From positions 1 to 48,461 of the IMG/VR virus record IMGVR_UViG_2778261094_000010: DNA of 48,461 nt; one strand, given 5' to 3'. The notes below the pieces were generated by a model, which saw only the letters and a list, made by a program, of their open reading frames with translations, did not search any database and was not told where the DNA came from. Both the position numbers and the translations under genes were made by a program. This stretch comes from a virus. Its lineage: Duplodnaviria > Heunggongvirae > Uroviricota > Caudoviricetes. Shown piece after piece: positions 14,527 to 34,549 of the stretch (positions are counted from its first letter, which is position 1; each line of letters opens with the position of its first letter).

Positions 14527-14571
14527 ATTTTCCTCCTGTGCCCGCCATTACGCGGGCACAAAAAAACCGCA

Positions 14572-15798: not shown

Positions 15799-15811
15799 TA
15801 TTTACTCCTGG

Positions 15812-17874: not shown

Positions 17875-18611
17875 TTAAAGCGAGCGAATACCAACGCTGA
17901 CCAGATGTTCAGACAGATCCGGCTCCGGTTCACCGCCATTGACCAGCATCCGGCTCATTGCTGTAAACATCGCAACAGGGCCGTCGATTTTGGCTTCCGG
18001 CGTGGATTTATTCGGGAAGATATTGTCGTTTTTGTCCGGTTTTACCGTAACGTTAGACATCATCCAGTTCATGACCGGATGATTGCTGTGGTGGAAACGC
18101 CCGGCATAGACCAGTGATTCCGTTTCCTTCATGGCCTCTGACAGATTGCGGACCGTCTGCGGAACTTCCACCAGCGGTATACCTTCTTCAGTCAGCGCCA
18201 GACTGAACTGCATTGCGCTCCACGGGTCAAATCCCAGTTCCCTCAGGTTTTCACCGCCAATCCATTCCAGTAGGTCACTTTTGATCTGAGCATGATCGAT
18301 AACATCACCATCCGTCAGGATGAGCTTACCCATCTCCGCCCACTTCCGGTAAAGTTCTGCCTGCTGCCGTGAGCATCGTTCCAGCCGTCCTTCCGGAAGC
18401 CAGAATTTAAAATCGGCATGAACATGCCCGTTATCCGTTCGCCAGAGTTTTGCCGCCGCACAGATATCAATCTTATGAGCAAGGTCGACGCCGACCCACA
18501 TGGGATATGTTTTCAGCTCATGCTGTGGAGCAATGTATTCGCACTTCTCCCACTTAATCATGTCCATCCAGGCAGACTCTGCTGTTACCCACACATTCAT
18601 GTGTTTGGTAA
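17875..18611 (-). pseudogene. terL: Helper prophage terminase large subunit, C-terminal nuclease-domain fragment (3' half of a terL split by the satellite)
   Basis: Translation NVWVTAESAW...WVGVDLAHKID...KIDGPVAMFTAM aligns with the C-terminal nuclease domain of the intact satellite TerL (NIWCQGATPW...AGLDLSSTSD...KIDPSVAALMAF); the reading frame runs up to the 7-bp core at 18605..18611. Confidence 0.8.
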
Positions 18612-18620
18612 GAATATTTC
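18601..18620. repeat. Left attachment junction (attL-like): exact 7-bp core TTGGTAA at 18605..18611 plus imperfect flanking match
   Basis: TTGGTAAgAAtATT here versus TTGGTAAaAAaATT at 33522..33535; marks the boundary between the terL C-fragment and satellite DNA. Confidence 0.65.
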
Positions 18621-18894
18621 AAGTTTTTTAAAATCACCTGTATATCAATCGTTTAACATGAAAAAACAGTCTTTATAAATCATCAAGCAATACACAGCGC
18701 AATACACGTATCTGTATTGTTTTAATGCTGATACACACCGTTTTTTGATACAGTGATTCGACCTACCATCGCGAAGCATTTTTTATTTCTTGTGTGTAAC
18801 AATCTGACGAGGTGAGCACTCAAAGAGATAAGAGGCAGTAGAAATTTCGATCACCCCCCTGAATGCAATTTTTCGTATATATATACAAAACAGC

Positions 18895-19047
18895 GCGGGT
18901 TATGCGGGTTAGCGGGTTATCTTCGCGTGCTAAGTATTTTTTGCTCTTTAATATCAATGCGTTAAAAAACAACGTATTTAAATATCAGCCAGAATGTAAC
19001 CCGCAAGACATTCAAAATAACCCGCACCCCTCCCTCAAATAACCCGC
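18895..19047. repeat. Iteron cluster B: 3 tandem GCGGGTTA(T/G) repeats, AT-rich spacer, 3 inverted (A)TAACCCGC copies
   Basis: Direct copies at 18895..18920, inverted copies at 18997..19004, 19017..19025 and 19039..19047, preceded by a TATATATATA tract; same repeat unit as the cluster downstream of the replication gene. Confidence 0.7.
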
Positions 19048-19128
19048 AAAAACATCCCTGAAAGTGGGTACCGGTAATACTGAAAATTTATTCCATTAAA
19101 TGAGCATTGTCCTCTCTCATCCATTCCG

Positions 19129-20790
19129 TTACACACCATCAAACGCCGCAAGCCGCTCTTTGTGGCTGTCGCTCATATCGAATGCAAATTCCTCATGCTC
19201 TGCCTGGAATGTGCCAAACGCCATCAGCGCCGCAACGCTCGGGTCTATCTTGTTGGATGATTTTTTCTTGTTCGGCTTGATATTGGCGTTCGCGTCACTC
19301 TGCATCACAACATTACTCATTGACCAGGCCAGCACCGGATCGCCACGATGCACAATCACCTTCCGGTTAACAAAAACTTCGAACGATTTCGCCGCCGGAC
19401 TGAAACGAAGGTATGTTTGCGGGAACGGCTCCACCTCAAATCCTGCCCCCTGTAGCTGCGTCCTCAGGTGCGTGGCGTTCCATGTATCGAAGCCCACCAG
19501 CCTGATATTGAAATTCTCTGCATCCGCCATGATGTCATCACGGATACGGTCATAATCAATGCAGTCACCCGGTGTTGTGCGTATCCAGCCCGCCTTTACC
19601 CACTGGCGATAGATGGCGCGGTTTTTATTGGCGGGGTTCTGTAGCTGAAATTCAGGCAGATAGTGACGGGAAACCAGCATAATCTTTTTACCGACCGGAA
19701 AGGCATAGCACACGCTGGAAATATCGCTGGTTGATGATAAGTCCAGCCCCGCGTAGCACTCCTGCCCGTATAAATCCGCCTCCGCGAACGTTCCGGCGCA
19801 CTCCGCCCATGCACCGTTACCCATCCACGGCGTAGCCCCCTGACACCAGATATTGAATCGCTTGGTGAGCATTTCCACCCACTGCGACGGAATACCCCGC
19901 GCTTTCTGGATGGTTGAGGCCAGTTTTTCACGATCGACGGAAACATCGATATTGGGATTCGCCTTTATCCACATCGCCGGATCGTCAACCTCGCTTTCAT
20001 CATCCAGCTCGTAAATCAGCACGAACATGGATTCGTTCACCTCTTCACCATCCAGTATCTGGCAGCAATAGTCATAGTGTTGTTTACAGGCTGAAACAAC
20101 GTTGCTCCCCGATGTGGTGATGGCAAATAACAGCCCCTCCGGACGCGCCCCCATTCCCAGTTCAAGCGCGGAATAAACCCCGTTGTCAGGGTGCAGGTGA
20201 TATTCATCCACAATGGCAAGGCTCGGGTTTGTACCTTCAATGGTTGCCGCTTTTGCTGCCAGTGGCTTTAACAGGCTGTTGGTTTTCGGGTGTATCACCT
20301 TGTGTGCCTGAATATTTACCCGCTTTCGTAACGGTCGGGATAAAAGGCACATCTGACGCGCATCATCAAACACGATCCGCGCCTGATCACGACTCACGGC
20401 GGCGGTGTAAATATCCTGCTGCCCGTTTTCCATAACCAGAAACCAGTTAGCCAGGATAGCGGCGACCGTGGATTTGGCATTTTTTCGCGGCACTTCAATG
20501 AATGCGCTGGTGTATTTGCGCCGTCCGGTGGCCTTAACCTTAAAGCCCAGGATGCACGCAAAGGCGAACTGCTGCCACGGCTCCAGCTCAATGGGGCTAC
20601 CGCGCATTGCGCCTTTTACGTGCGGACACACCCTGGAAAAGGCAATAAACCGCTCCACGACCTCCGGATCGAACGTGTAAAGGGGGTTTTCAAGGTCAGA
20701 AAAATACCGTTTAACGGCCTGTTTCAGTCGTTTACAGGCCGTAATTTTGCCGTTTTTTACGCCTTCTGCGTACTCATGCCAGGCGGTCAA
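19129..20790 (-). CDS. terL: Satellite terminase large subunit (intact)
   Basis: 553 aa with N-terminal ATPase and C-terminal nuclease domain (AGLDLSSTSD, KIDPSVAALMAF); apparent TTG start at 20788..20790 overlapping the TerS stop, preceded by a GAGGAAGAGGA ribosome-binding site. Confidence 0.9.
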   Translation of the reverse strand: MTAWHEYAEGVKNGKITACKRLKQAVKRYFSDLENPLYTFDPEVVERFIAFSRVCPHVKGAMRGSPIELEPWQQFAFACILGFKVKATGRRKYTSAFIEVPRKNAKSTVAAILANWFLVMENGQQDIYTAAVSRDQARIVFDDARQMCLLSRPLRKRVNIQAHKVIHPKTNSLLKPLAAKAATIEGTNPSLAIVDEYHLHPDNGVYSALELGMGARPEGLLFAITTSGSNVVSACKQHYDYCCQILDGEEVNESMFVLIYELDDESEVDDPAMWIKANPNIDVSVDREKLASTIQKARGIPSQWVEMLTKRFNIWCQGATPWMGNGAWAECAGTFAEADLYGQECYAGLDLSSTSDISSVCYAFPVGKKIMLVSRHYLPEFQLQNPANKNRAIYRQWVKAGWIRTTPGDCIDYDRIRDDIMADAENFNIRLVGFDTWNATHLRTQLQGAGFEVEPFPQTYLRFSPAAKSFEVFVNRKVIVHRGDPVLAWSMSNVVMQSDANANIKPNKKKSSNKIDPSVAALMAFGTFQAEHEEFAFDMSDSHKERLAAFDGV

Positions 20791-21130
20791 GCTCGTCCTC
20801 TTCCTCTGTTTCCGGTGGATTTCTGCGGCGACTTACCGGGTCAAAACCCAGCAAAGAAGCCATTTTGATCATTATTCTTTCAGCGTCAGCCTTTGCGCTC
20901 AGGGCGGGGTTTCTGCTCTCGCTGCCCTGACTGTTAACAATGCTGAACCCGCGCGTGGCAAGGTCTTCGACGGCTTTGCGGTATATGGAGTAGTTAACAC
21001 AATACAGCTCCAGATTGCTCCAGTCGGCGGGGGTAAGGTCTTCCCGTCCGGAAAGCTGGCGCGATTTTTCCTTCCACTGCCTGACCGCGATTTCATCCAG
21101 GTAAGCGGGGGCTTTTGGTGGTCTTGCCAT
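20774..21130 (-). CDS. terS: Satellite terminase small subunit (P27-like family)
   Basis: Translation from MARPPKAPAYLDEIAVRQW resembles P27-family small terminases; start assigned to the ATG at 21130. Confidence 0.8.
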   Translation of the reverse strand: MARPPKAPAYLDEIAVRQWKEKSRQLSGREDLTPADWSNLELYCVNYSIYRKAVEDLATRGFSIVNSQGSESRNPALSAKADAERIMIKMASLLGFDPVSRRRNPPETEEEDELDRLA

Positions 21131-21418
21131 GTTCTTTTTTCGCCCAATTATTTTCAAAAAAATTCCCGTGCACAAAAATTTGAGGAGGCGGTCGGTGTCC
21201 GGCAGGGACGGTTTCGTCCTGAAAACCACCCCCACCCCCTCTGACGGCCTCACCAGCGATTGCGAAAACATTCCATGACCTCGCGGTCACGGTCGGTTAA
21301 TCACTTCGCTGTGGTGCGTTTTGTGCGCCCTGTCCTGTTGGCTTTGTGCCCTGTCTCCTGTGTCTTCCATAAGTCACGCTGCCTTATCAGTCCACGTATC
21401 AGCCTGGTTTGCTCCTGT

Positions 21419-21859
21419 TCAGTCATCATCGCCATACATCCAGTCGTTACGGTGTGCTGCCCGTTCTTCCTGCTCGCGATACATGCCCGCCTTACGGTTC
21501 GCTTTCGTGGCTGGATCTTCCCGTGTCGTCTTACGGTTGTGGCACGTCTGGCACAATGCCTGGTGGTTCCACTCAGGCCAGAAGAGAACATCACCGCCGC
21601 CATTGATGGGGATGATGTGATCCACCACAAGAGCTGGCGTATAAATCCCCTTAGCCAGACAACGCACGCATAACGGGTTTTTGCTCAGGTACAGGGCGCG
21701 GTATTTGTCCCACTGTCGGGAATACCCGCGCGCGCGGCGGTGTCCCCGTCTGGCATCCTCTGCACGCCATGCAGCCCGTCTGTGCTCTTCACACTTGCCG
21801 GACTTCACGCGCTTATTACAGCCCGGCTCAGTGCATCGCCTTAATGGTTGCCACGGCAT
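21419..21859 (-). CDS. HNH endonuclease (terminase-associated)
   Basis: Cys-rich zinc-finger motifs (CNKRVKSGKCEEH, CVRC, CQTCH) and HNH-like His/Asn; located upstream of terS-terL as in HK97-like packaging modules. Confidence 0.85.
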   Translation of the reverse strand: MPWQPLRRCTEPGCNKRVKSGKCEEHRRAAWRAEDARRGHRRARGYSRQWDKYRALYLSKNPLCVRCLAKGIYTPALVVDHIIPINGGGDVLFWPEWNHQALCQTCHNRKTTREDPATKANRKAGMYREQEERAAHRNDWMYGDDD

Positions 21860-22161
21860 CAGTACACCCCCACATCACGATAAACCGACCAGAGCGCAGA
21901 AATAGCCATAGGCAGTTCAGACTGCTCCACTGGTGAAACTGCTTCCCTGTTCTCGTACAGGAAAGCGATGTACATCAGGCAACCAACACGCATTGCCGGG
22001 GTAAATTCCAGCCCGTCTTCAAAACGTTTCCCGATATGCTTCTGGCAGGCTTCCAGCGCCGCATCGGTATACATTTTCAGAAGTTCGCCTTCACCGGATA
22101 AATCATCATCAAGTCGAAGATGTGCCCTGACTTCATCAGGTGTAATTCTGGCTTCACTCAT
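21859..22161 (-). CDS. Satellite head-tail connector protein (gp6-like)
   Basis: Translation from MSEARITPDEVRAHLRLDDDL parallels the helper gp6-like protein (MLLKEEEIKSHLRLDD); GGGAGA ribosome-binding site before the ATG at 22161. Confidence 0.7.
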   Translation of the reverse strand: MSEARITPDEVRAHLRLDDDLSGEGELLKMYTDAALEACQKHIGKRFEDGLEFTPAMRVGCLMYIAFLYENREAVSPVEQSELPMAISALWSVYRDVGVY

Positions 22162-23368
22162 CTTTTCTCCCTTTAATTTCCACAGTCTGTTTCCATGCCT
22201 GGCTGAACTCATCACCACCTTCACGCGGCGGCATACCCTCGCGTTCGCGAGCTTCGTTCGGATTCATGATCCCGCTCTTAATCCCTTTCTCATACGTGGC
22301 ATAACGTTCGGTGGGTGTGGCGCGCAGTAAATCGGCTGAATCAAACTCAACCAGATAACGGGTACCAGGTACGGGAGAAGTCACCAGCAAAGCGGCCTTG
22401 ATTTGCTGTTCGAAGTTCGCCAGCCACGGGCGCATTGTCATGGTCAGAAATGCGCGGCTCGCCTCACTGAAATTGCTGTAGGTGCTGTTGCTGTATTCCT
22501 GAAGAAAAATCGGCGACACGTTGAACATCCTGGCGATGTCTTCAATGGAGAAGCGACGGGAGGCCAGCCATTCCGCATCCTGGTTACTCATCCCCAGCTG
22601 CCTGTAATCCATGCCCCCTTCAAGGATTGGCGTTTTTCCGGCATTTTTCGCCCCCTTGTAGCGTTCCAGTGCGTCTAATGCCTGTTTACCTTTCACGCCG
22701 TCCAGCCATTCACCTGACGTGATAATCCCTGCCGCCATCATGCCATCTTTCATAATGCTGGCTCCGTGACGCTGTTGAGCAAGGCCAAGCCCCAGCGCCT
22801 CACGGCAAATCGTGACGGGGGAACGCCCCAGAAAGCCATCATCCGAGGCATAGCGGAGATGCAGAACTTCTTCCTGTAAATACGTGCGCACCGTTCCTGT
22901 ACAGGGTTCGGTGATGGTATAGCGGTATTTGTGTGTGCCTGTGCGTTCCGGTACAACACACCCCGGCGCATAAGGATGAAGTGATTTTGGCTGCCCGTCC
23001 CGCCCCCACTCAATAACCGCATAGGCGTTACCGTTCAGCAGGCAGTGACGCATCATTGTGCGTTTAAACTGGTAAGGTGTCAGGCACGAATTAGGCTGCT
23101 CATTCAGCAGAATATCTACCGGGTGACTGTCCAGCCATTCCCGCGCCTCTCTGCCCTTATCATTGCGTACCAGATACAGGTAACACGGCATCGTGGCCAC
23201 CGCCTCAGCGATGACAGAAACCGCGTTCATCACAGCAGGCAATGATTCAGCCGTCCCGGCAGAAACATATTCTCCGGATCCGGTATTTGGTACACCAGAC
23301 AACGCCAGAAAATCATCAATGGACAGGTTACGCAGATCGCTTTTTTTACGACTAAAAGGCCACCACAT
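22154..23368 (-). CDS. Satellite portal protein (HK97 family)
   Basis: Portal-like sequence; start assigned to the ATG at 23368 (MWWPFSRKK), one nt after the protease stop. Confidence 0.85.
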   Translation of the reverse strand: MWWPFSRKKSDLRNLSIDDFLALSGVPNTGSGEYVSAGTAESLPAVMNAVSVIAEAVATMPCYLYLVRNDKGREAREWLDSHPVDILLNEQPNSCLTPYQFKRTMMRHCLLNGNAYAVIEWGRDGQPKSLHPYAPGCVVPERTGTHKYRYTITEPCTGTVRTYLQEEVLHLRYASDDGFLGRSPVTICREALGLGLAQQRHGASIMKDGMMAAGIITSGEWLDGVKGKQALDALERYKGAKNAGKTPILEGGMDYRQLGMSNQDAEWLASRRFSIEDIARMFNVSPIFLQEYSNSTYSNFSEASRAFLTMTMRPWLANFEQQIKAALLVTSPVPGTRYLVEFDSADLLRATPTERYATYEKGIKSGIMNPNEAREREGMPPREGGDEFSQAWKQTVEIKGRKDE

Positions 23369-23369
23369 A

Positions 23370-23930
23370 TCACAACCCCGCCAGTTCAGCCCAGCGATGA
23401 CGATTATTTCCTGCCGGGCGTAATTCAGGGTACTGTGCAAACAACGAACGGTGGGCAATCTCCACGCCGGATTCGGGATAAGCAGGCATCGATGTTATCG
23501 TGATTTCACGGAGTTCTGCGGCGGTTACAGTACGCAGATACGGTTTTTGCGCGATATTCCACTCCTCGCATAATGCGCGAAAGCCAAAGCTCATTCCTGT
23601 AATATCGCCACGTTCCACCAGCGTAAGCACATCTTTTCCAAGCTGGGTATTTGGCGGTGTCAGTTCAAAACGTAGCCCGGTGTTATCCTCAGTCAGTACC
23701 AGTGAGCCGGATTTGGTACGCCCCAGCAGTTGGGTATAGTCATGCTCATACAGACAGCGCACATCATTACCCGCCGCCAGATAGTCAGCAAAAGCCCCCG
23801 GCGTGAACTGTTCGCGAAACTCGTCCCAGATAATTTCTGAAAGGCTGTTCCAGCGAACGGCATAACCCACCAGTTTTTTATCGCTGGCGGTCAGTTCAGA
23901 TGTACGGATTTCAAAATCGGTGTTTTTCAT
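23370..23930 (-). CDS. Satellite prohead protease (HK97 family)
   Basis: Translation from MKNTDFEIRTSELTASDKKLVGYAVRWN with conserved His/Ser regions (YEHD, GMSFGF); GGAG ribosome-binding site before the ATG at 23930. Confidence 0.85.
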   Translation of the reverse strand: MKNTDFEIRTSELTASDKKLVGYAVRWNSLSEIIWDEFREQFTPGAFADYLAAGNDVRCLYEHDYTQLLGRTKSGSLVLTEDNTGLRFELTPPNTQLGKDVLTLVERGDITGMSFGFRALCEEWNIAQKPYLRTVTAAELREITITSMPAYPESGVEIAHRSLFAQYPELRPAGNNRHRWAELAGL

Positions 23931-23979
23931 CGGTGTACTCCATAAAGCTGAAAAAGGAGGCCGAAGCCCCCTTTGCTCA

Positions 23980-25125: not shown

Positions 25126-25360
25126 GAAGGTTTTCTCGCATTGGTTAAGATTCAGGACGTGAAACCAACACGGGGGGAGCGCCGCCCGACACTCTCGGCA
25201 TCTCGCAGATCAACCCGGCATCGCGCAGGGGGTCAGGCGGCATTGTGGCGGCTCACGTCTGAGTGCCACACGCCAACATATACATAAAAATCAGTATGTA
25301 AACATCAGCCAGAATCACCGAACAACCTGGAACAACCACGAACAAATAATTTACAAAACC

Positions 25361-25396
25361 TGAAAAAAGGCCCGGAAAAAATCCGGGCCTTTATCG
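25361..25396 (-). terminator. Rho-independent terminator (bidirectional hairpin GGCCCGG-N7-CCGGGCC flanked by A and T runs)
   Basis: Perfect 7-bp stem with A6 upstream and T-rich downstream, immediately 3' of the minus-strand gene ending at 25399. Confidence 0.7.
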
Positions 25397-25398
25397 CT

Positions 25399-25647
25399 TT
25401 ATTGTTTCACTGGCTCCCGCATTCTGCGTCTTATTTTCCACAAATATTCGATCATCGCTTCCACCTGCTCACGGTTGGTTGCGAAAATTTCCCCGGTCAG
25501 TGAGCTACGCAGAAAATCATGATGATCCACAAAAAATAACGCATCGGAAGAAAGCAACCGACGATATTTTTTTGCTGTCGTGGTTTCCAGATCATCAAAA
25601 CCATGAAGCTTTTTATGTTGCTGAACTTCTTCAAATGTCACTGGCAT
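25399..25647 (-). CDS. Hypothetical satellite protein
   Basis: 82 aa ORF overlapping the upstream gene end and followed by a terminator; no recognisable motif. Confidence 0.4.
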   Translation of the reverse strand: MPVTFEEVQQHKKLHGFDDLETTTAKKYRRLLSSDALFFVDHHDFLRSSLTGEIFATNREQVEAMIEYLWKIRRRMREPVKQ

Positions 25648-26180: not shown

Positions 26181-26216
26181 GCCTTCCCCCGTAATTACTC
26201 TGTTCGCTGTTGTGAA

Positions 26217-26642: not shown

Positions 26643-26706
26643 GCTGTCTGTTCTCCGGTTTTAACGTTGATTGTTACGCTTGTTTACACCCTTACGGTGA
26701 AATTCT

Positions 26707-26829
26707 GCGGGTTATAATCGCACTTTTGCGGGTTATAACTGCCGTTTTGCGGGTTACGTGCGGGTTATTGATTTCCTTTTTATTCATACAGTTAATGCAC
26801 TTATACACAGGATAACCCGCATAACCCGC
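26707..26829. repeat. Iteron cluster A (putative satellite replication origin): 4 direct GCGGGTTA(T/C) repeats, AT-rich spacer, 2 inverted ATAACCCGC copies
   Basis: Direct copies at 26707..26715, 26728..26736, 26749..26757 and 26760..26768; inverted copies at 26812..26829; located just downstream of the replication protein gene. Confidence 0.7.
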
Positions 26830-26852
26830 AACTTTTTACATCACACAGGGGG

Positions 26853-28976
26853 TTAATCTTCTGCCTCAGGCTGGAACATCAGCACGTAAAAAACATGCTG
26901 CTTCCCCCCAATTTTGCTGAGCGCCTTTTTCTTGTAACGGCGGTCGTTCCCCTTTTCCAGCATCCCCGCCGCATCAAGCGCTCTTGCAAAATGCGACGGG
27001 TTAAATCCCTGTGCGATCTCACCTTCAAACACATGCGGGAACGTGTAAAAACGGAACTCGTCATCTTCGTTTCTGATACTCCCCTTTCTGTATCCGGCAA
27101 GTTCTTTAATCGGTAAATCACGCTCGTCGGTGTTGGGCCACGGAAGGTATCTGCTGAATCCGAACGACGCTAAAAAAGCCTCTGCCTGTTCAACCATCTG
27201 TTTAAATTCCCTGTTACCCGTGCCGAACTCCTTCACCCAGGCATTAAAATTATGCTGTATGGCATCGCGGCACGCCTGAACATCCCAGCCAGTAATATGA
27301 CCGGACAACACTAACGCCGCCTCAAGCATGGCAAATCGCTCCCCCACACGGTGAACCTGTTCGCCGTAGCTCTCCGGTATCAGGTTGCGCCACCGTTCAC
27401 GGCATGCCCTTACCGTGTCCTTTGCTTCCTGCTGGTGGTTTGCCAGCCATTTAACCCACTCTCGACCCGCCGCCCCGTGATTTTCTGTCCAGGCATCCTT
27501 TAACGCGTCTGCGTGCGCCTTTCCGGTGCTGTATTCGTGAAACTGCGTGGCTTTTTCCATCGGCACGTTAAGCAGGCGGACAAGCTGCCCCGCCTTGACT
27601 TTTATCCCCTCCGTTTTGAGGAATGTTTCAACGTCCATTTCTCCGGTGCTGATTGCCACCGTGCGCCAGTGTTTGATCTCCCTGTTGCCGCCGTCCTTCG
27701 CCCCCTGTAATTTCCCCGAACCGTTAAACAGCGTATAGGCTGACGTGGACACCTCCCGCGCGTTTCCGGCCTGACCTATTTCATCCAGGGGTAACAGCCC
27801 ATCATTATGTGCTTCGGCCTCGTTGGCGATACCTAACGCCGTGCCGTACCAGGTCAGCCGTTGTGCGTCCGGCTCTCCCCATAAACTGGATGCGATGTTC
27901 TGTGTGGTGGTTTTCCCTGCCGATGACTGTTCGAAAAGATGTACCCCGAAGCCGTCAGCCCCCACCAGCCCGATTAATGGTGCGGATAACGATACCGCCA
28001 CACCCAGCATCATGGACGGATTACCACCAGCCAGCCGCGCCACGGTATCGCGCCAACCCTCCGCCGTTCCTGCCACGGAATAGCCATTAACAGCAGCCGT
28101 TTTTCCGGTAAACAGGGCTGGCTTTTCGCAATCACCAATGACCGAACCGTCCGGCATGATGTACGCGCCAAAATGCCAGCCCGTTGTTGTGCTTAACTGC
28201 CATTCCTCATGGCTTCCGCTTAACTGCATCCAGTCAGCCAGGATAGCCCTGTATTTGCCGTTAGTTGTTACGTTCAGTCCGTGGTCTTTCAGCAGCCGCC
28301 AGCCGTCACGGTCGCCAATGCCACCGCACGGAACCGCCATTGTGATGACTTCATGGTTTGCTAATTTTTTCCAGCGCATCACGCGGTAATGCTCTTTACC
28401 GATTGTCCCCGTTCCCAGTAGTTCAAGCGGGGAACATAACCACGTCTCAGGCCGGATAATTTCGCCTGACTGCTTATCCACTTTTGGCGTTACCCAGAAA
28501 ACACCATCGGCGCGACTTTCAACGCGGGGCTTTAATTCATCATCGCCCTGGCTTTCTGTAATTTTTTTCTTTAAAGGCAACACCAGACTTTCCCCGCGCT
28601 CGTATTCGTCTTTGAGGCGAGGCAACTGGTCGGATAAATCCGCCGGGCTGGTGTCAGTTATACCCGCGTATTCGTATACGGTCTTCACGCCAGCCACAGC
28701 CAGCAACGTGACGATCTGTGTAAGGCTACGTTCAGTGATGTGCCCTGCGCGGTAAACACGCACACACTGACGGCTATCATCAATAATTTGATAACCGGTA
28801 ATATCTTTCAGGTGTTCATCTGACAGAACGACAGGTGGCACATTGTCGGCGGCAATATGCTTACCTGCCCATTCCTGCCACTCTTTCGCATGGCTCCACG
28901 CATCACTACCCGCAAAGATGATAACCTCCGTCATTTTGTCGGCTGGCTGGTGCTTTAAGTTTGGTGCGCGCTTCAT
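26853..28976 (-). CDS. Replication protein, DUF927-type primase/helicase (P4 alpha-like or PICI Rep-like) with Walker A motif
   Basis: 707 aa; Walker A-like SSAGKTT within a DUF927-like helicase core; adjacent iteron cluster; ATGA-type overlap with the upstream ORF. Confidence 0.75.
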   Translation of the reverse strand: MKRAPNLKHQPADKMTEVIIFAGSDAWSHAKEWQEWAGKHIAADNVPPVVLSDEHLKDITGYQIIDDSRQCVRVYRAGHITERSLTQIVTLLAVAGVKTVYEYAGITDTSPADLSDQLPRLKDEYERGESLVLPLKKKITESQGDDELKPRVESRADGVFWVTPKVDKQSGEIIRPETWLCSPLELLGTGTIGKEHYRVMRWKKLANHEVITMAVPCGGIGDRDGWRLLKDHGLNVTTNGKYRAILADWMQLSGSHEEWQLSTTTGWHFGAYIMPDGSVIGDCEKPALFTGKTAAVNGYSVAGTAEGWRDTVARLAGGNPSMMLGVAVSLSAPLIGLVGADGFGVHLFEQSSAGKTTTQNIASSLWGEPDAQRLTWYGTALGIANEAEAHNDGLLPLDEIGQAGNAREVSTSAYTLFNGSGKLQGAKDGGNREIKHWRTVAISTGEMDVETFLKTEGIKVKAGQLVRLLNVPMEKATQFHEYSTGKAHADALKDAWTENHGAAGREWVKWLANHQQEAKDTVRACRERWRNLIPESYGEQVHRVGERFAMLEAALVLSGHITGWDVQACRDAIQHNFNAWVKEFGTGNREFKQMVEQAEAFLASFGFSRYLPWPNTDERDLPIKELAGYRKGSIRNEDDEFRFYTFPHVFEGEIAQGFNPSHFARALDAAGMLEKGNDRRYKKKALSKIGGKQHVFYVLMFQPEAED

Positions 28977-29287
28977 TTTGCCTTTCCCCGTTCACGAATA
29001 ATTTCACGTACTGCCTTAATGCGTTCCATTCCTGTAACGCGCATGATTCTGTCGATGTCGCTTAATTCTGCTGGTGGTGCTTTGCTTACCAGGGGGAACT
29101 CCCTTTCAAAGCGCATATGCGACGACACGCAGGGATGCGCATAACCTTCGCGGATATAGGTCACGCGAAAATCATCGACGGTTTTAATCGTTATCGTGCT
29201 GCCGTATTTATCCCGGAAAATATCGCCGGGGCGGATTTCAGGCCGAGCGTGACCGCTGGCAGTAAAGCCAGAATTTTTCTTTTTCAT
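28973..29287 (-). CDS. Hypothetical satellite protein
   Basis: Start assigned to the ATG at 29287 (MKKKNSGF); translationally coupled to the replication gene. Confidence 0.4.
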   Translation of the reverse strand: MKKKNSGFTASGHARPEIRPGDIFRDKYGSTITIKTVDDFRVTYIREGYAHPCVSSHMRFEREFPLVSKAPPAELSDIDRIMRVTGMERIKAVREIIRERGKAK

Positions 29288-29294
29288 GTTTTTT

Positions 29295-29543
29295 TTACTC
29301 CAGAGGCAGCTTTTTAGCGGCGAGCTCAATATCAGATGTCAGAGAAACCTGTGTATTTGCCAGGTCTAACAACAAAGAAATAAGAATTTCTTCTCTGCTA
29401 TCGGATTTATCGGTGCTAAGGCTGTTCATCCACATATTGACGACTTCCCTGATTTTTTTCGCAGAGTGCAGGGCTTCAAATGCCAGGCCTTCAATATCAT
29501 GTTTATTTCGCATAATCGCCCCCGCCATTTTCACAATCAGCAA
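29295..29543 (-). CDS. Hypothetical satellite protein
   Basis: 82 aa ORF in the early operon; no recognisable motif. Confidence 0.35.
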   Translation of the reverse strand: MLIVKMAGAIMRNKHDIEGLAFEALHSAKKIREVVNMWMNSLSTDKSDSREEILISLLLDLANTQVSLTSDIELAAKKLPLE

Positions 29544-29748
29544 TCAGGATGGCTTTTGCCTCATTCAGCGCCATATCAGCACTAAATTGCATAAGAGCCA
29601 GTGAGTGAGGAACGAAAGCCCCGGTATATTCTGTTTCGCTGGTGGCGTGCTTATGCGCCTTGTCTGCGATAACAGAAATATCAATCAGCGCGTGCATCAG
29701 CGTTTTGATGGCTTCGGCGGCTGCGTCCGGTGTGGTTTTATTATGCAT
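29503..29748 (-). CDS. Hypothetical satellite protein
   Basis: 81 aa ORF in the early operon; no recognisable motif. Confidence 0.35.
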   Translation of the reverse strand: MHNKTTPDAAAEAIKTLMHALIDISVIADKAHKHATSETEYTGAFVPHSLALMQFSADMALNEAKAILIADCENGGGDYAK

Positions 29749-29944
29749 AGGTTTCCCCCTGGCGAATACGGGCGGCGAATACCATCACGCAGCCATCAGG
29801 AGATTGCTGACGCGCTTCCTGTTCGCTGGTGGCCTCAATGGTAATCACGCGCGGTTGTGCCGTGCTCAGGGCGATAAAACGCCAGATGTATTTATTCAGG
29901 TTGTACGAGTCCCGCCCTTGCGGGTGTCTGGTATAATTTCTCAT
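29741..29944 (-). CDS. Hypothetical small protein, first gene of the minus-strand early operon
   Basis: 67-codon ORF (MRNYTRHPQGRDSYNL...) with a GAGG ribosome-binding site, transcribed divergently from the operator region. The listed 349-aa ORF is treated as a read-through artefact. Confidence 0.4.
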   Translation of the reverse strand: MRNYTRHPQGRDSYNLNKYIWRFIALSTAQPRVITIEATSEQEARQQSPDGCVMVFAARIRQGETYA

Positions 29945-30041
29945 AGCTACCTCGATACGCTTTCTATCGTTGGTGGTTAGAAGCCCGGTTAGTGTTAGCG
30001 CACTGCCGGGTTTCGTCGTTTCTGCACCTTGCATCAGTAAG

Positions 30042-30093
30042 GTGTTGAACACCAATTTAAGCCCTGGTGTTAAACACGTCAAGTGTTGAACAC
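30042..30093. promoter_or_regulatory. Operator-like triple palindrome GTGTT(G/A)AACAC in a divergent promoter region
   Basis: Near-palindromic 11-mers at 30042..30052, 30067..30077 and 30083..30093, between the minus-strand early operon and the plus-strand small regulator gene. Confidence 0.6.
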
Positions 30094-30143
30094 TTATTTT
30101 TTTTCCTGCATACTGCATTTGTTTTTTGTAAGGGGTACACAAC

Positions 30144-30323
30144 ATGGCAACAAAAGCAGTAAACGCAAAATCACAAACAGTTGCGGCAAGGGTTCCGCAT
30201 GAAGTTATGAACAATGTTGAGGCGGTAAAAATGCCTGGTGAAAGTACAGGGCAGTTTGTAACAGCAGCATTAAAGCGAGAAGTTGAATACCGCCAGCGTC
30301 GCAAGGCCAAAGAGCAGGAATAA
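30144..30323 (+). CDS. Small putative DNA-binding regulator (59 aa)
   Basis: ATG at 30144 preceded by an AAGGGG ribosome-binding site, immediately downstream of the operator palindromes; small basic protein with a KREVEYRQRRKAKEQE tail. Confidence 0.5.
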   Translation: MATKAVNAKSQTVAARVPHEVMNNVEAVKMPGESTGQFVTAALKREVEYRQRRKAKEQE

Positions 30324-30380
30324 CCATCACCAGCGCCGTGGTGTAAGGTATTACGGCGCATTGCTATGCAGGACAACACA

Positions 30381-30554
30381 ATGACCGATAAAGAATTGAC
30401 CAAAACATTATCACCGACACGGAAAAGACGGCGCAGAAAGATAGAGCATGAATCAGAAAGATTCGCACCTTGTTCGTTTGCTCTTGAGAAATTCCTTAAA
30501 GAGCGCAGGAAAAAACTCTCGTTGCAAACCTTGGAACGAACCAAATCTGACTGA
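30381..30554 (+). CDS. Hypothetical small basic protein
   Basis: 57-codon ORF (MTDKELTKTLSPTRKRRRRK...) with an AGGA ribosome-binding site, followed by tandem terminators. Confidence 0.3.
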   Translation: MTDKELTKTLSPTRKRRRRKIEHESERFAPCSFALEKFLKERRKKLSLQTLERTKSD

Positions 30555-30620
30555 TCACATTGCCCACCAGCCGCAAATGTGGCATTGTTGGTGATGCTTT
30601 TGTTTTCCCTTGTTCCCACT

Positions 30621-30650
30621 GGCGACCCTTTTGCGGTCGCCTTTGTTTTG
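30621..30650 (+). terminator. Rho-independent terminator (GGCGACC-CTTTTGC-GGTCGCC followed by TTTGTTTTG)
   Basis: Perfect 7-bp stem followed by a T tract, downstream of the plus-strand small ORFs. Confidence 0.7.
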
Positions 30651-30745
30651 CCTGTTATCCTGCAACTATGGTCATTTCGACCACGGTTGATATAATCCCC
30701 CCGCACAGATTCATTTTTTGCGCAGTAGGTTAATTGTTCGCAAGG

Positions 30746-30780
30746 GCGCTCCGGTAACGGGGCGCTTTTTGTTTTTACCC
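30746..30780 (+). terminator. Rho-independent terminator (8-bp stem with GTAA tetraloop followed by TTTTTGTTTTT)
   Basis: GCGCTCCG-GTAA-CGGGGCGC hairpin (one G-U pair) followed by a T-rich run; second of two tandem terminators. Confidence 0.65.
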
Positions 30781-30934
30781 ACCAGCACAATAAAAATCTT
30801 CATTTTCCATTTTTGTAAAATTTCATGCTTTCCGGACGACTGGTAATATGTCATTTTTTAGCAGAAGATTTTGCCTTGCTGGTGGGTAGCTTCCCGGTCA
30901 ACACGATGTACCGTATAATCAACACCGCGTGTGG

Positions 30935-31531
30935 TTACTGAATACGCTCACCAAAGTAAAACTCAGGCTGGTATTCACGTATCAGCCTTTTTTCTTCTTC
31001 CTCCAGTTCACGCTTTTTGCGCTTACATGCCTGTAGCTCCCTCCCCTTCTCGCTGGCACTTATCTGGTATTGCTCTTTGCGGCGGGAAAAATCCTGTAAT
31101 GCTCCCCACGGGATACCATAAGCCCCCGTTTTTCTGATACCCGGTATCACATTTCTGAATACCCAATTACTGAAACGATGGGCGAACGTGCCAGGATTAA
31201 CAGCTTTGCGACTTCTGGCGATCAACTTGTAAAAACCTGATTCTGATACAACATTCCAACTTCTGGCACCACCACGCTTACCTGAATGACCCTCGGTTAA
31301 AGCTAGGGTCATTACCTCATCGCTATCCAGAACTGAAACAGCATCGGTAACGTTGCTAATTTCCAGCGCCGCACACACATCAGCGCCAACAAACCACGGA
31401 TCGCCGTTCAGATACACCACGCGAACGTTCACACTATCAAAGCGCAGAACGACCAGATCACGAATATCACAGAATTTTTTCACATGACGTGCGTCACCCT
31501 TGCCCGTCGCGGCAATATTTTTATTCATCAC
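30935..31531 (-). CDS. Bro-N domain protein (antirepressor-like)
   Basis: Bro-N signature (FDSVNVRVVYLNGDPWFVGADVCAALEI...SGFYKLIARSRK) with a Lys/Glu-rich coiled C-terminus. Confidence 0.7.
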   Translation of the reverse strand: MMNKNIAATGKGDARHVKKFCDIRDLVVLRFDSVNVRVVYLNGDPWFVGADVCAALEISNVTDAVSVLDSDEVMTLALTEGHSGKRGGARSWNVVSESGFYKLIARSRKAVNPGTFAHRFSNWVFRNVIPGIRKTGAYGIPWGALQDFSRRKEQYQISASEKGRELQACKRKKRELEEEEKRLIREYQPEFYFGERIQ

Positions 31532-31585
31532 TTTCTACCTCACATACAAAAAACCCCGCATTGCGTGGTGCGGGGTTGTCGGTAA

Positions 31586-31864
31586 TTACTTATTGGCGTT
31601 TTTGTATGGGCTGTTTACTTCCTTTACTCCTGGCGGATGCATAACCCACCAGAGCACATCAGAGAGCAACCAGGAAACAGACACTTTCCCTAAATGAGCA
31701 CGAGCAGGAAATGCTCCCTCCTGTTCAAGTACCCAACGTCTGCTTCTTGAAAGCCCGGTACGATTGGCACACTCATGTTCGCGTATACGGCGATCATACG
31801 GTTCGCCATGTTCTTTCAGAATCTGAATGCGTTCTTCGGGTGTAGGATAAATAAATTTTTGCAT
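31586..31864 (-). CDS. AlpA-like helix-turn-helix regulator (second copy)
   Basis: Translation from MQKFIYPTPEERIQILKEHGE with an AlpA-type C-terminal helix-turn-helix (TGLSRSRRWVLEQEGAFPARAHLGKVSVSWLLSDVLWW). Confidence 0.5.
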   Translation of the reverse strand: MQKFIYPTPEERIQILKEHGEPYDRRIREHECANRTGLSRSRRWVLEQEGAFPARAHLGKVSVSWLLSDVLWWVMHPPGVKEVNSPYKNANK

Positions 31865-31927
31865 AAAAATATCACCTATAAAAAAACCCGCCAAAAGACG
31901 GGTTGATTATATCTCATTTAATTTAGT

Positions 31928-32161
31928 TCAGGGTTTCCATTCACCCTTTACCCATTCCAGCACCTCAGATAAGCGCCAGACTTTTGTTTGTGGGCCAATA
32001 CATATTTTCCGTGGAAATTTTCCTTCCTTTTCAAGTAATGCTCTGTGTCTCCTGCCAAGAGCTGTTAACCATGCACATTCATCTTCCTTAATCATCCTGT
32101 CGATTGTTTTATCATTTTCAAGTTCTTCACGCGTAACTATTTCAATCATTACCGTCACCAC
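31928..32161 (-). CDS. alpA: AlpA-family transcriptional regulator / excisionase-like protein
   Basis: 77 aa with AlpA-like helix-turn-helix (LTALGRRHRALLEKEGKFPRKICIGPQTKVWRLSEVLEWV); immediately downstream of and overlapping the integrase gene. Confidence 0.75.
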   Translation of the reverse strand: MVTVMIEIVTREELENDKTIDRMIKEDECAWLTALGRRHRALLEKEGKFPRKICIGPQTKVWRLSEVLEWVKGEWKP

Positions 32162-33350
32162 TAATTAGCTTATTCAGATAGTCGTACCACCAGTTCATAG
32201 CTTCTTTTTTTCTGTCCATATACTGACTTCTGTTATAAACCCCGGCAACACCGCCTAATGTGTGCCCAAGCAACTGTTCAACCACATTATGTTCAAAACC
32301 ATGATCACTTAGCTTTGTGGCAAACACTCTTCGCATATCATGCGCCGTCCATTTTTCCGAGTGTTTCATCCTTTTCCATGTCTTACCGATAGTTACGCTT
32401 GCCGTACACTGACGCATATCAAACCCAATCACATTTTCTTTGTTACCTGTTATTTTTTTTAACGTAACTAACCAGTTAAACATGCCATCAGGAATCGGTC
32501 TGATTATTTCCCTGCCATTTTTGCTATGATCAGCGGGAACGCGCCATAATTTCTTATCAAAATCCCACTCTACCCAGGACGACAGTAATACTTCTGACAG
32601 TCGACAACCAAAAACTACCAGGAAACGTAAAATAATTCGGTTTTCATATGATAATTCGTGATTGTCATAATCAGTATTAATACTTCGCCATAAATCTCTG
32701 ATTTCATCATCTGTTAAAACCCTGCTTCTTCGCGCAGACTTTTTTCCCACATCACAGACCTCAAGATCATCAATTTCATGACTAATCGCGTATTTTCTTA
32801 CCCTACAAAATTTAAGCGCCTGTTTTGATATACGCAACAAAGCTCCGGCCTGTACAGGTGCTACTTTTTTTATTTTGTCAAAACACTTGATCCACATAGA
32901 TATAGAGCAATCACTAAGTGGTACATGACCAATCACCGGATAAATATGTTTACCAAAGCACTGCCTGATATGTTCTGCTCCCCTACGCTTATCCATTGCA
33001 TAATTATCAAGCCAGTATTCAAGTGCCTCACGAACGGTAACAGGTTGCAAGGTGGCTTCCCGTTCAATTTTTATCTGAATCCGTGGATCTCTGCCCTCCG
33101 CAAGCCAGGTTCGACACTGATCGCGCATCTCTCTCGCTGATTTGAGACTCAGATCAGGATATTTTCCAAGTGTCAGCCAGATGGGCGCGGTTCCCCTTCC
33201 CGCCAGTCTGTAAAAGAAAACAAAACTAACACATCCGTATTTACTGACCCGTACCGAAAGCCCGTTACCATCAGCGATGGTTTCCTGCCTCTCACTCCTG
33301 CGCCCAAGCAGGGAACGAAGTTTTTTATCGCTCAGTTTGTTTAGCGCCAT
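32142..33350 (-). CDS. int: Tyrosine integrase (P4-type site-specific recombinase)
   Basis: C-terminal catalytic motifs (HDMRRVFAT, LLGH, GVYNRSQY); start assigned to the ATG at 33350 (MALNKLSDKKL); lies about 170 bp from the right junction core. Confidence 0.9.
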   Translation of the reverse strand: MALNKLSDKKLRSLLGRRSERQETIADGNGLSVRVSKYGCVSFVFFYRLAGRGTAPIWLTLGKYPDLSLKSAREMRDQCRTWLAEGRDPRIQIKIEREATLQPVTVREALEYWLDNYAMDKRRGAEHIRQCFGKHIYPVIGHVPLSDCSISMWIKCFDKIKKVAPVQAGALLRISKQALKFCRVRKYAISHEIDDLEVCDVGKKSARRSRVLTDDEIRDLWRSINTDYDNHELSYENRIILRFLVVFGCRLSEVLLSSWVEWDFDKKLWRVPADHSKNGREIIRPIPDGMFNWLVTLKKITGNKENVIGFDMRQCTASVTIGKTWKRMKHSEKWTAHDMRRVFATKLSDHGFEHNVVEQLLGHTLGGVAGVYNRSQYMDRKKEAMNWWYDYLNKLISGDGND

Positions 33351-33517
33351 GTGATTTATAACCCGTTTTTGCAATACACAGTGCAATACACAAATGATGA
33401 AAACAGCCAGAACCTTCCAGAAAAAACAAAAACGACGAACAAGAAAAAATCTTTTTCTTTCATTTGGTTACTAAAAAAATCAGGACAGGTCGCACTGTTG
33501 TTACGGCGTGATGTTAC

Positions 33518-33537
33518 TTTCTTGGTAAAAAAATTCA
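33518..33537. repeat. Right attachment junction (attR-like): exact 7-bp core TTGGTAA at 33522..33528 plus imperfect flanking match
   Basis: Direct repeat of the 18605..18611 core; boundary between satellite DNA (integrase side) and the helper terL N-terminal fragment. Confidence 0.65.
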
Positions 33538-34549
33538 CCCGCGCAGAGACCTGTTCTTTCGCTTTTTTCGCCAGGCGACGCAGATCATCCCAGCGTTTAC
33601 AGATGCCCAGGCCGGGATTCGCTTTCTGCCAGACCGTTTCATCAAACGGATCATCTCCCTCATCGAGGGTGTAAATAATCGCAAAGTAGGAGTCGTCTTT
33701 TACCGCGCCCTCCACGTCGCTGTTATAGCCTCGCAATACCTTGATGGCGTAATCGCGTTGCTCGTAACAAATCCCTTCCTTGTTAAAGCCAGCCGTGGTG
33801 ATACCAAATAACAGGGACTGCAGACGGGCACCGGTTGCCGTTTCCAGAACGTCCCACACGTCGCGGGTTTTATGTGCATGCAGCTCATCAATAATGGCGC
33901 AGTGGATGTTCAGACCATCCAGGTTGTTTGCATCCGAGGAAAGCGGTTCAAATTTTGATGCGCTCTGCTCCTGGTAAATCGCCAGCTTGTTGAAATCAAA
34001 CAACCGCCCGAGTGTCGATCGGGCTTTTCTGACCATATTTTTGGCGTCTTCAAACACGATTCTGGCCTGGTCACGCGTGGTTGCGGCTGAATACACCTCA
34101 GCCCCGCCTTCACCATCTGCCCCCGTCATATACAGACCGATACCTGATGACAGGGTTGATTTTGCGTTTTTACGGGCGACTTCGTTGTACGCTGTCCGGA
34201 AACGGCGCACCATCACCGGGCGTCCGCTGCCATCGCTGCGCATGACAACTTCCCCGGTCTCTTCATTCACCAGCGGAATGACAAAACCAAAAATATTAAT
34301 GAGGATAAAAACATGCCAGTCCATCAGTTCAATGGGCTGACCTGCCAGCGCCCCTTTTACATGGGGCACAAATTTGTAGAAATTCAGGATGTGCTGCGCA
34401 CGGGGTTCACTGAAATAAATCCCCCGCTCTTCGCCGTACTTCAGATCATCAAGAAAACGCTGGCAGGCCAGACGGACAAATTCACCAGCGACAATTTCTC
34501 CTGCAACAACACGTTCGGCGTAGCGGATCCCGTCAGCCACTTTTGCCAT
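33522..34549 (-). pseudogene. terL: Helper prophage terminase large subunit, N-terminal ATPase-domain fragment (5' part of a terL split by the satellite)
   Basis: Translation through DETVWQKANPGLGI...ARVNFFTKK parallels satellite TerL (DDPAMWIKANPNID...EMLTKRFNIW), then runs into unrelated low-complexity sequence (VTSRRNNSATCPDFF...) after the junction at about 33522; the ORF's true stop is at 33356. Confidence 0.8.

Follow-up and report, generated by a model that had tools for sequence, protein, structure and literature searches.

A capsid-encoding satellite in the large-terminase gene of an Escherichia coli prophage: a helper-embedded PICI at a published site

We found that the large-terminase gene (terL) of an E. 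coli prophage carries a real 14.9-kb insertion, a capsid-encoding satellite that occupies 18605..33521 of the 48,461-nt stretch of viral DNA analysed (the window). Judged by its sequence, this arrangement, at exactly the present terL site, is real and not new, having appeared in print in 2023 under the name helper-embedded PICI (HE-PICI). The best overall explanation, to which we assign a probability of about 0.9, is an HE-PICI residing in helper terL with a life cycle coupled to its excision. The original prediction knew of no described case; that claim of novelty falls, since the terL site, its 7-bp core and its flanks had all been published (PMC10111431).

Pfam searches matched TerL_ATPase (8e-28) and TerL_nuclease positions 2-68 in the ORF at 33356..34549, and TerL_nuclease positions 64-283 (3e-37) in the ORF at 17875..18600. 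Hence, the two terL pieces abut within the nuclease domain. Joining 34549..33522 to 18604..17875 in silico gave an uninterrupted, in-frame ORF of 1758 nt (585 aa) that contains RVNFFTKHMNVWVTAESAWM; the halves meet at the 7-bp core TTACCAA, and the repaired junction reads GTGAATTTTTTTACCAAACACATGAATGTG. This repaired TerL is identical at 585/585 residues to the intact annotated TerL of E. coli E300082 and is colinear with the satellite TerL at 31.6% identity (residues 10-575 against 7-541). The proposal that the two fragments make up one split helper TerL is thus borne out by the adjacent Pfam halves, the in-frame repair and the E300082 match, and the profile search also placed 19129..20790 in the TerL families. 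The predicted breakpoints, 33522 and 18611, proved exact to the base: TTACCAA lies at both junctions on the minus strand (33528..33522 and 18611..18605), within a 14-nt imperfect repeat. The split supplies no replacement sequence, and the 5' fragment reads into about 55 non-TerL codons.

Among 5,426 complete E. coli genomes, 36 have the occupied attL junction (from cattle, pigs, poultry, humans and water) and 892 have an empty attB. One empty-site prophage is 98-99% identical to the window over most of the helper sequence (60-18618 and 33522-44141), and alignments to empty-site prophages break exactly at the core with a 14-nt overlap. The uninterrupted terL expected in related prophages therefore exists, in about 890 genomes; empty and occupied sites are both present, and att cores and integrase are intact, as opposed to the same arrangement recurring without repeats or integrase. 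In E300082, the closest empty-site relative, the prophage end adjoins a truncated ydfJ; the window has no host flank. Besides TerL, seven helper packaging, head and sheath proteins are 98.6-100% identical in amino acids to those of the E300082 prophage. The host element is a lambdoid prophage that combines an HK97-type head with a Mu-type tail.

Fourteen sites in late genes of prophages have been described for HE-PICIs (Tommasini, Mageeney & Williams 2023, NAR Genom Bioinform 5:lqad036; PMC10111431), one of which is A:Terminase_1:246 with the att identity "ttaccaa". The attL (163 nt) and attR (77 nt) given there for this site are both present in the window, with 0 mismatches. HE-PICIs also bear a doubled motif, tgTGTATTGCantgTGTATTGCa, with one copy about 81 bp upstream of the attP centre and a second, in the same orientation, about 132 bp downstream of it (PMC10111431). 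The HE-PICI-specific doubled motif TGTATTGCnnTGTGTATTGC has exactly two matches in the window, where none is expected by chance, near the published spacing. The att sequences identical to those of published members, together with an integrase that shares 99.3% amino acid identity with the one in the copy that E. coli 042 carries at this site, imply that the integrase belongs to the HE-PICI clade. Where the core would be expected, the satellite terL reads TCACCAA and its flanks diverge, so that self-targeting looks unlikely by sequence comparison.

The satellite gene order is integrase, two AlpA, Bro-N, DUF927 primase with iterons, SSB, capsid, protease, portal, connector, HNH, TerS and TerL (Table 1), in four ordered zones: Integration (Int/AlpA), Bro (Bro-N), Replication (DUF4222/primase/SSB) and Late (capsid through TerL). 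The key genes are all on the minus strand, co-oriented with the interrupted late gene; int adjoins attL and points inward, and the two AlpA genes follow. No ORF in 18605-33521 had a tail or lysis Pfam match. Hence, the original prediction was right wherever its structural claims could be checked: a site-specific insertion of a satellite with integrase, AlpA and primase and a complete head and packaging module but no tail genes. Terminator-like hairpins (sigma-70) follow alpA1 and alpA2 on the minus strand. Rfam gave no P4-type C4 or isrK RNA in the satellite at the gathering threshold, and its sole match at E<=1 was a sub-threshold symR-like one (32.8 bits against a 61-bit cut-off); C4 and isrK RNAs are reported in some HE-PICI Bro zones (PMC10111431). 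Neither the Icd-like nor the YlcI/YnfO-like ORF had a Pfam match, and a 349-aa TTG ORF at 29741..30790 is almost certainly spurious, overlapping the small annotated genes. The slot held by the ProQ/FinO gene is variable, with a PerC-family regulator there in the 042 copy.

Table 1. Positions of satellite, attachment-site and helper features in the window
Feature	Position	Strand	Evidence or remark
attL core TTACCAA (crossover region)	33522..33528	-	Published attL of A_Terminase_1_246 matches 33423..33585, 0 mismatches
attR core TTACCAA	18605..18611	-	Published attR string matches 18587..18663, 0 mismatches
HE-PICI doubled motif TGTATTGCACTGTGTATTGC, proposed integrase arm-type site	33371..33390	-	~133-135 bp downstream of attP centre
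HE-PICI doubled motif TGTATTGCGCTGTGTATTGC	18687..18706	-	~79 bp upstream of attP centre
Satellite tyrosine integrase, 400 aa from ATG (listed ORF starts at TTG 33386)	32142..33344	-	Pfam Phage_integrase 1e-18, Arm-DNA-bind_3 1e-17
AlpA-family regulator/excisionase 1	31928..32161	-	Pfam Phage_AlpA 2.5e-9
AlpA-family regulator 2	31586..31894	-	Pfam Phage_AlpA 7e-10
Bro-N domain protein ("Bro zone")	30935..31531	-	Pfam Bro-N 2e-16
Small-gene region	29741..30323	.	ORF list; names by position from PGAP annotation of E. coli 042 copy
Icd-like ORF	29741..29944	-	Mostly aligned to 042 copy by megablast
YlcI/YnfO-like ORF, 59 aa, divergent	30144..30323	+	Not aligned to 042 copy by megablast
DUF4222 protein	28973..29329	-	Pfam DUF4222 4e-18
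Satellite primase/replicase (DUF927)	26853..28976	-	Pfam DUF927 1e-45
Putative satellite origin	26703..26839	.	Four direct TGCGGGTTAT iterons (21-, 21-, 11-bp spacing) plus inverted copies; after primase gene
Second cluster of iteron motif GCGGGTTA	18895..19048	.	Three direct and three inverted copies; 500-bp non-coding satellite 3' end
SSB	26217..26642	-	Pfam SSB 4e-16
ProQ/FinO-domain accessory protein	25638..26180	-	Pfam ProQ 8.5e-24
Satellite major capsid protein (HK97 fold family)	23980..25125	-	Pfam Phage_capsid 8e-61
Satellite prohead protease, true start probably internal	23370..24155	-	Pfam Peptidase_S78 1e-44
Satellite portal, true start probably internal	22154..23458	-	Pfam Phage_portal 2e-91
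Satellite gp6-like head-tail connector	21859..22224	-	Pfam Phage_connect_1 4e-5
Satellite HNH endonuclease	21419..21859	-	Pfam HNH 9e-10
Satellite TerS	20774..21271	-	Pfam Terminase_4 4e-23
Satellite TerL, intact, 553 aa	19129..20790	-	Pfam TerL_ATPase and TerL_nuclease
Helper terL 5' fragment, ATPase domain and nuclease-domain start	33522..34549	-	Pfam; ORF continues in satellite DNA to stop at 33356
Helper terL 3' fragment, remaining nuclease domain	17875..18604	-	Pfam TerL_nuclease positions 64-283, 3e-37
Helper HNH endonuclease (packaging accessory)	35179..35598	-	Pfam HNH 3e-15; 98.6% aa identity to E300082 prophage HNH
Helper TerS (P27/Terminase_4 type)	34549..35031	-	Pfam Terminase_4 1e-25; 100% aa identity to E300082 TerS
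Helper head module: portal, S78 protease, capsid, connector, head-completion and neck proteins	12740..17681	-	Pfam; downstream of terL; seven proteins compared (not the protease) 98.7-100% aa identical to E300082 prophage
Helper contractile Mu-like tail: sheath, tube, tape measure, DNA-circularisation protein, baseplate gpP/J/gp48, fibres	184..12572	-	Pfam Phage_sheath_1, Tail_tube, PhageMin_Tail, DNA_circ_N, GpP-like, Baseplate_J, Phage_Mu_Gp48
Helper Q antiterminator	41742..42437	-	Pfam Phage_antiter_Q 5e-84; upstream of late operon with split terL

Compared with the published HE-PICIs at A:Terminase_1:246, the window satellite shares the target gene and codon region, the ttaccaa block, the attL and attR flanks, the doubled TGTATTGC motif and its spacing, the 15-16 kb size class, the four zones and the late-operon co-orientation. 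Nothing of substance differs; the published helpers are at potB where seen, whereas E300082 has ydfJ. The gene order equals the gene profiles published for terL-embedded HE-PICIs (PMC10111431) and the organisation of proteobacterial capsid-forming PICIs (cf-PICIs; prototype EcCIEDL933; Alqurainy et al. 2023, 10.1101/2022.09.08.507074). The proposed match to cf-PICIs held in part. The series int, alpA, primase, capsid, protease, portal, connector, hnh, terS, terL, the size (about 15 kb, with a published range of 10-15 kb and 14.9 kb here), the lack of tail and lysis genes and an identity below 40% between satellite and phage head and packaging proteins are all shared. In contrast, the attB sites of described cf-PICIs are chromosomal and "never occupied by prophages", whereas the attB here lies within a prophage gene; a single connector gene is recognisable in the window satellite; and the tails reported for characterised cf-PICIs are non-contractile siphovirus ones (10.1101/2022.09.08.507074), whereas the embedding prophage has a contractile one. 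Satellite P4 and classical Gram-negative PICIs (EcCICFT073) resemble the window satellite in a backbone of related integrase, AlpA and primase, in genes of the Bro zone and in an Icd-like gene, but they occupy chromosomal gene or tRNA sites and use helper capsid proteins, and the C4/isrK RNA was not detected in the window satellite. As in intervening elements and phage regulatory switches (e.g. B. subtilis skin in sigK), a gene is interrupted without a replacement end, and those elements excise precisely at a set point in development, which makes the ORF whole again; here it is a gene of another mobile element that is interrupted, and the satellite, not the cell, is presumably what the regulation serves.

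The late proteins of satellite and helper are 26-38% identical (capsids 35.5%, connectors 30%), which rules against recent capture of the satellite late genes from the present helper. The HNH-to-terS intergenic regions, the expected cos position, gave no meaningful alignment between satellite and helper, which argues against a shared cos site; a shared site would have suggested packaging by the helper terminase. The dissimilar intergenic regions and the low protein identity are consistent with separate packaging specificities. Against the 042 satellite, amino acid identity is 100% for TerL and HNH, 99% for TerS, 98% for portal, 87% for connector and 69% for capsid. In the five sampled helpers, the prophages that host these related satellites differ completely in neck and tail modules: those of 042, OkiPb01701 and VTB97432v are sipho-tailed (lambda-like, non-contractile), and those of the window and ETEC4090 are myo-tailed (Mu-like, contractile). 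Some occupied helpers look degraded, among them that of ETEC4090 with its baseplate pseudogenes.

The satellite integrase recombined TTACCAA of attP with the same heptamer inside prophage terL. We propose that the insertion would leave the helper without functional TerL and unable to package while the satellite is integrated. Upon prophage induction, Q-antiterminated late transcription would run through TerS and 5' terL into satellite int and alpA. Excision of the satellite would thereby be tied in cis to the late phase of the helper, and it would rejoin terL exactly. The excised circle would then replicate from the iteron origin with its own DUF927 primase and SSB, build its own small HK97-type capsids, package itself with its own HNH/TerS/TerL and take phage tails. 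The co-orientation of all relevant genes and the upstream Q antiterminator count for this mechanism, and the hairpins after alpA1 and alpA2 might limit read-through by RNA polymerase that is not Q-modified. Loss of the helper gene during integration and linkage in cis have been argued already, as "regulated gene integrity" (PMC10111431). For 11capE, an HE-PICI at E:Phage_cap_E:80, experiments showed that the composite excises and replicates and that the satellite then excises precisely; virions were not recovered even for this model (PMC10111431). Those experiments concern a different site group, and for the terL group we infer excision, induction order and particle formation by analogy.

The original prediction has the embedding prophage provide the tails that the satellite needs; this role is uncertain because its tail is contractile, a type with no report as a tail source of cf-PICIs, which are reported on siphovirus tails. 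The same contrast favours a reading in which prophage terL is a harmless landing pad, with a sequence that resident lambdoid prophages commonly have, the real helper, which both induces the satellite and gives it tails, is a different, siphovirus-tailed phage, and "helper-embedded" is a misnomer here. Near-identical satellite packaging and portal proteins in prophages with wholly different neck and tail modules also point that way, as do the off-target chromosomal insertions listed for satellites of this type, off-A_246 at yeaN among them (PMC10111431). However, late genes are the recurring target throughout the integrase clade, with 14 sites and insertion in the orientation of the late operon (PMC10111431), which is hard to reconcile with a neutral pad; the window satellite is co-oriented with a Q-dependent operon; and cf-PICI capsids are reported to accept heterologous tails (10.1101/2025.02.11.637232). 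We consider a neutral pad unlikely, albeit worth taking seriously. That the embedding prophage is itself the tail donor, with capsid-forming satellite heads docking onto contractile tails, is likewise unlikely.

Decay is improbable: a fixed mosaic of defective satellite and prophage that no longer excises, with split terL a pseudogene, would fit the PGAP calls of the terL halves as pseudogenes in the 042 copy, the further pseudogenes in some helpers and the many HE-PICI helpers that appear truncated (PMC10111431). In the window, however, the ORFs for integrase, both AlpA, primase and the whole head and packaging set are intact, the two 7-bp cores and the two doubled motifs are without a fault, the repaired TerL is unchanged from the intact allele, and the seven other helper proteins compared nearly match those of the uninterrupted prophage. 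We found nothing in favour of an artefact of assembly or recombination, or of two different terminase genes lying together by chance; the same junction in 36 independent complete genomes and the mapping of both breakpoints to one 14-nt stretch of empty-site genomes already refute such readings. An HE-PICI in helper terL is thus the reading we retain.

The phenomenon, the exact site and the cis-regulatory argument have been known since 2023; the window adds no more than a clean and seemingly intact example, together with a control genome that matches it closely and has the empty site. It could be used in experiments on the terL site group and on whether capsid-forming satellites can use contractile tails. 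A satellite parked in the packaging gene of a virus would couple its activation to the helper late phase and hold helper packaging hostage until its exit. If the embedding prophage truly donates tails, cf-PICI tail piracy would extend beyond the siphovirus tails reported so far.

We found that the terL gene of the surrounding E. coli prophage (the helper) is interrupted by a capsid-encoding satellite of about 14.9 kb; the genes concerned are all on the - strand. Because the first terL ORF matches only the start of the Pfam TerL_nuclease model and the second continues from there, the two ORFs follow on from each other in a single protein whose nuclease domain is split. Read in the terL direction, ...GTGAATTTTTTTACCAA runs directly into GAAAGTAACATC... 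at the upstream junction, and ...GAAATATTCTTACCAA runs directly into ACACATGAATGTGTGG... at the downstream junction. Both share a perfect 7-bp core, TTACCAA, within a 14-nt imperfect repeat. When 34549..33522 and 18604..17875 were joined in silico, the result was a 585-codon ORF without interruption, reading ...RVNFFTKHMNVWVTAESAWM...; the predicted junctions are GTGAATTTTTTTACCAAACACATGAATGTG for the repaired attB and CTTGAAATATTCTTACCAAGAAAGTAACATC for attP. In a colinear alignment, the repaired helper TerL and the intact TerL of the satellite are 31.6% identical. Since the split falls within the RNase-H-like nuclease domain, the fragments are unlikely to complement each other.

Features of the helper prophage and the inserted satellite (window coordinates)
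Feature	Position	Strand	Content or evidence
Helper Mu-like contractile tail	184-12572		sheath, tube, tape measure, DNA-circularisation protein, gpP, baseplate J, gp48
Helper HK97-type head/packaging module			HNH, TerS, split TerL, portal, protease, capsid, connector, head-completion protein
Helper lambdoid early/regulatory module			DnaC-like loader, hok/sok, DUF968, Q antiterminator, Ser/Thr kinase and PP2C phosphatase, DNA methylase, three tRNAs
Helper terL 5' part	33356..34549	-	Pfam TerL_ATPase 8e-28; TerL_nuclease positions 2-68 only
Helper terL 3' part	17875..18600	-	Pfam TerL_nuclease positions 64-283, 3e-37
attL junction	33525		core TTACCAA at 33528..33522
attR junction	18608		core TTACCAA at 18611..18605
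Doubled motif tgTGTATTGCantgTGTATTGCa	33371-33390 and 18687-18706		co-oriented
Inserted element	18605..33521
Satellite integration/Bro genes		-	tyrosine integrase with arm-binding domain, two AlpA proteins, Bro-N protein (Pfam)
Satellite small genes			Icd-like, YlcI/YnfO-like (names from annotation of the E. coli 042 copy)
Satellite replication genes			DUF4222, DUF927 primase (Pfam), then four TGCGGGTTAT iterons and inverted copies
Satellite SSB, then ProQ/FinO-domain protein		-	Pfam; ProQ/FinO-domain protein at 25638-26180
Satellite late genes		-	major capsid, S78 protease, portal, gp6-type connector, HNH, TerS (Terminase_4), complete 553-aa TerL (Pfam)
Iteron clusters	26703-26839 and 18895-19048		motif (T)GCGGGTTA(T)
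Icd-like ORF	29741..29944	-	start at 29944
SymR-like match	29945-30017	+	Rfam, 32.8 bits (cut-off 61 bits), E=0.006
Inverted repeats around GTGTTGAACAC	30042-30077		between divergent small genes
Satellite terL position homologous to helper attB	19840-19870		TCACCAA
Helper tRNA genes	38177-38426	-	ARAGORN: Met(CAT), Arg(TCG), Arg(TCT); upstream of lysis genes
Helper moron pair	40093-41672	-	Pkinase 3e-33, then PP2C 2e-14; GC 38-40%
Helper sok antisense RNA	44438-44613	-	Rfam RF01794, 120 bits, full-length

The same arrangement could also be a stable mosaic, and the distribution of empty and occupied sites decides between the two. Of 5,426 complete E. coli genomes, 892 have the repaired attB (154 nt, in silico) without interruption, and in 176 of these the identity is at least 99%. 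The occupied attL junction is present at full length in 36 genomes, whose sources are cattle, swine, poultry, humans and water. Among the occupied genomes is the enteroaggregative reference strain 042, in which the same element lies between two halves of terL that PGAP calls pseudogenes. A search of public genomes for the same prophage with an uninterrupted terL returned E. coli E300082, in which window positions 60-18618 and 33522-44141 align at 98-99% with breakpoints that overlap by 14 nt at the core. The repaired junction (1,284 nt) matches this strain at 100.0%, and the repaired TerL is identical to its annotated intact TerL at 585/585 residues. Hence, the split terL is the product of an insertion and not of mosaicism. 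The original prediction, that two ORF fragments form one helper TerL interrupted by an inserted satellite, was correct in its structural interpretation and precise in its delineation; the feature is real. Neither of the two outcomes that would have counted against this prediction was observed.

The prediction had also supposed that no such case was described, and here it was wrong, since the att strings, the doubled motif and the argument for linkage in cis are already in the report on helper-embedded PICIs (HE-PICIs; Tommasini, Mageeney & Williams 2023, NAR Genom Bioinform 5:lqad036, PMC10111431). That study describes 491 HE-PICIs, which occupy 14 sites spread over nine late genes of prophages, including the terL sites A:Terminase_1:132 and A:Terminase_1:246 (printed 245 in one passage). 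In its supplement, E. coli elements of 15-16 kb bear names of the form Eco####.15.A_Terminase_1_246 and have the att identity 'ttaccaa'; A_Terminase_1_246 appears as a label 68 times in the published attL file. The attL of Eco1012.15.A_Terminase_1_246 (163 nt) equals window 33423..33585, and a published attR (77 nt) equals 18587..18663, both with 0 mismatches. The doubled motif is reported as unique to HE-PICI attPs, with one copy about 81 bp upstream of the centre and the other about 132 bp downstream (PMC10111431). In the window it has exactly two matches (0 expected by chance), one at 18687-18706, about 79 bp from the centre of its core, and one at 33371-33390, about 133-135 bp from the centre of the other core. 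Hence, both this kind of feature and this site had already been published. The same paper discusses 'regulated gene integrity' serving the satellite, with passive replication and late-transcription read-through, and a satellite that itself holds, as a backup, a gene of the type it interrupts.

Satellite gene content and order along the - strand were assigned from Pfam, and no tail or lysis genes were found in the inserted element. The late-gene order is exactly that of proteobacterial capsid-forming PICIs (cf-PICIs), namely capsid, protease, portal, connector(s), then hnh, terS and terL (10.1101/2022.09.08.507074). The iterons form two separate clusters. One directly follows the primase gene, the expected origin position; the other, with three direct copies and three inverted ones, falls in a 500-bp non-coding stretch between the satellite terL and attR, and could be a second origin, a handcuffing/copy-control site or part of a packaging site. 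A sub-threshold match to the SymR antisense RNA lies directly upstream of, and antisense to, the Icd-like ORF start, and inverted repeats adjoin it. Where the helper attB has TTACCAA, the homologous position of the satellite terL reads TCACCAA and its flanks diverge, differences that probably protect this gene from self-integration; TCACGAA is a natural core variant in E. albertii (PMC10111431). Between the SSB and capsid genes, the ProQ/FinO-domain protein of this satellite is replaced in the 042 copy (L001, 27384-27680) by a PerC-family regulator and another ORF, and the capsid proteins of the two copies are only 69% identical while flanking genes are 96-100% identical. The variable accessory slot and the diverged capsid are both signs of mosaic exchange among members of the satellite family.

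The locus displays site-specific tyrosine-recombinase insertion at the 7-bp core, which disrupts terL without supplying a replacement end. The satellite is co-oriented with the Q-controlled late operon, and its genes for replication, heads and packaging form a self-sufficient set. For 11capE, a different HE-PICI in a capsid gene, experiment showed that the composite excises and replicates, after which the satellite excises precisely, reaching 42-98% at 2-3 h (PMC10111431). In the present element, excision would be triggered by Q-modified late transcription that passes TerS and the 5' fragment of terL and enters int and alpA. Helper packaging would be delayed or reduced, as terL would be restored only upon excision, and the satellite would replicate from its own iterons and be packaged into its own capsids by its own HNH, TerS and TerL. 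Separate packaging specificities for helper and satellite would fit, because their HNH-to-terS intergenic regions (the expected cos position) are unrelated and their packaging proteins are 26-38% identical.

The helper comprises three recognisable modules. Between Q and the late genes, its low-GC moron pair encodes a eukaryotic-type Ser/Thr protein kinase and a PP2C phosphatase, resembling the kinase-based phage exclusion genes of lambdoid prophages. The early region has the full-length sok match at the place where hokD is annotated in related prophages, which indicates a type I toxin-antitoxin locus of the hok/sok kind. Of the three phage-borne tRNAs, the CAT tRNA is labelled tRNA-Ile by PGAP in the E300082 prophage and is probably lysidine-modified Ile2.

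Although the tails that cf-PICIs reportedly use are the non-contractile ones of siphoviruses (10.1101/2022.09.08.507074), the prophage embedding this satellite has a contractile tail. We compared tail types in five occupied helpers (four sampled genomes and the window) and found lambda-like tails in three (042, OkiPb01701 and VTB97432v; L004, L006 and L007) and Mu-like tails in two, the window and ETEC4090 (L005; at potB, with baseplate genes partly pseudogenised). Hence, the terL target and this satellite type occur in both contractile Mu-like and lambda-like siphovirus-tailed prophages. The satellite packaging and portal proteins hardly change with tail type. Between the window and 042, the satellite TerL and HNH are 100% identical, TerS 99% and portal 98%, with the connector (87%) and capsid more diverged; the helper connectors are only 43% identical. 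These comparisons suggest that either satellite capsids can join very different tails or the tails do not always come from the embedding prophage. Which tails these capsid-forming satellites use is the sole part of this locus that goes beyond the published description.
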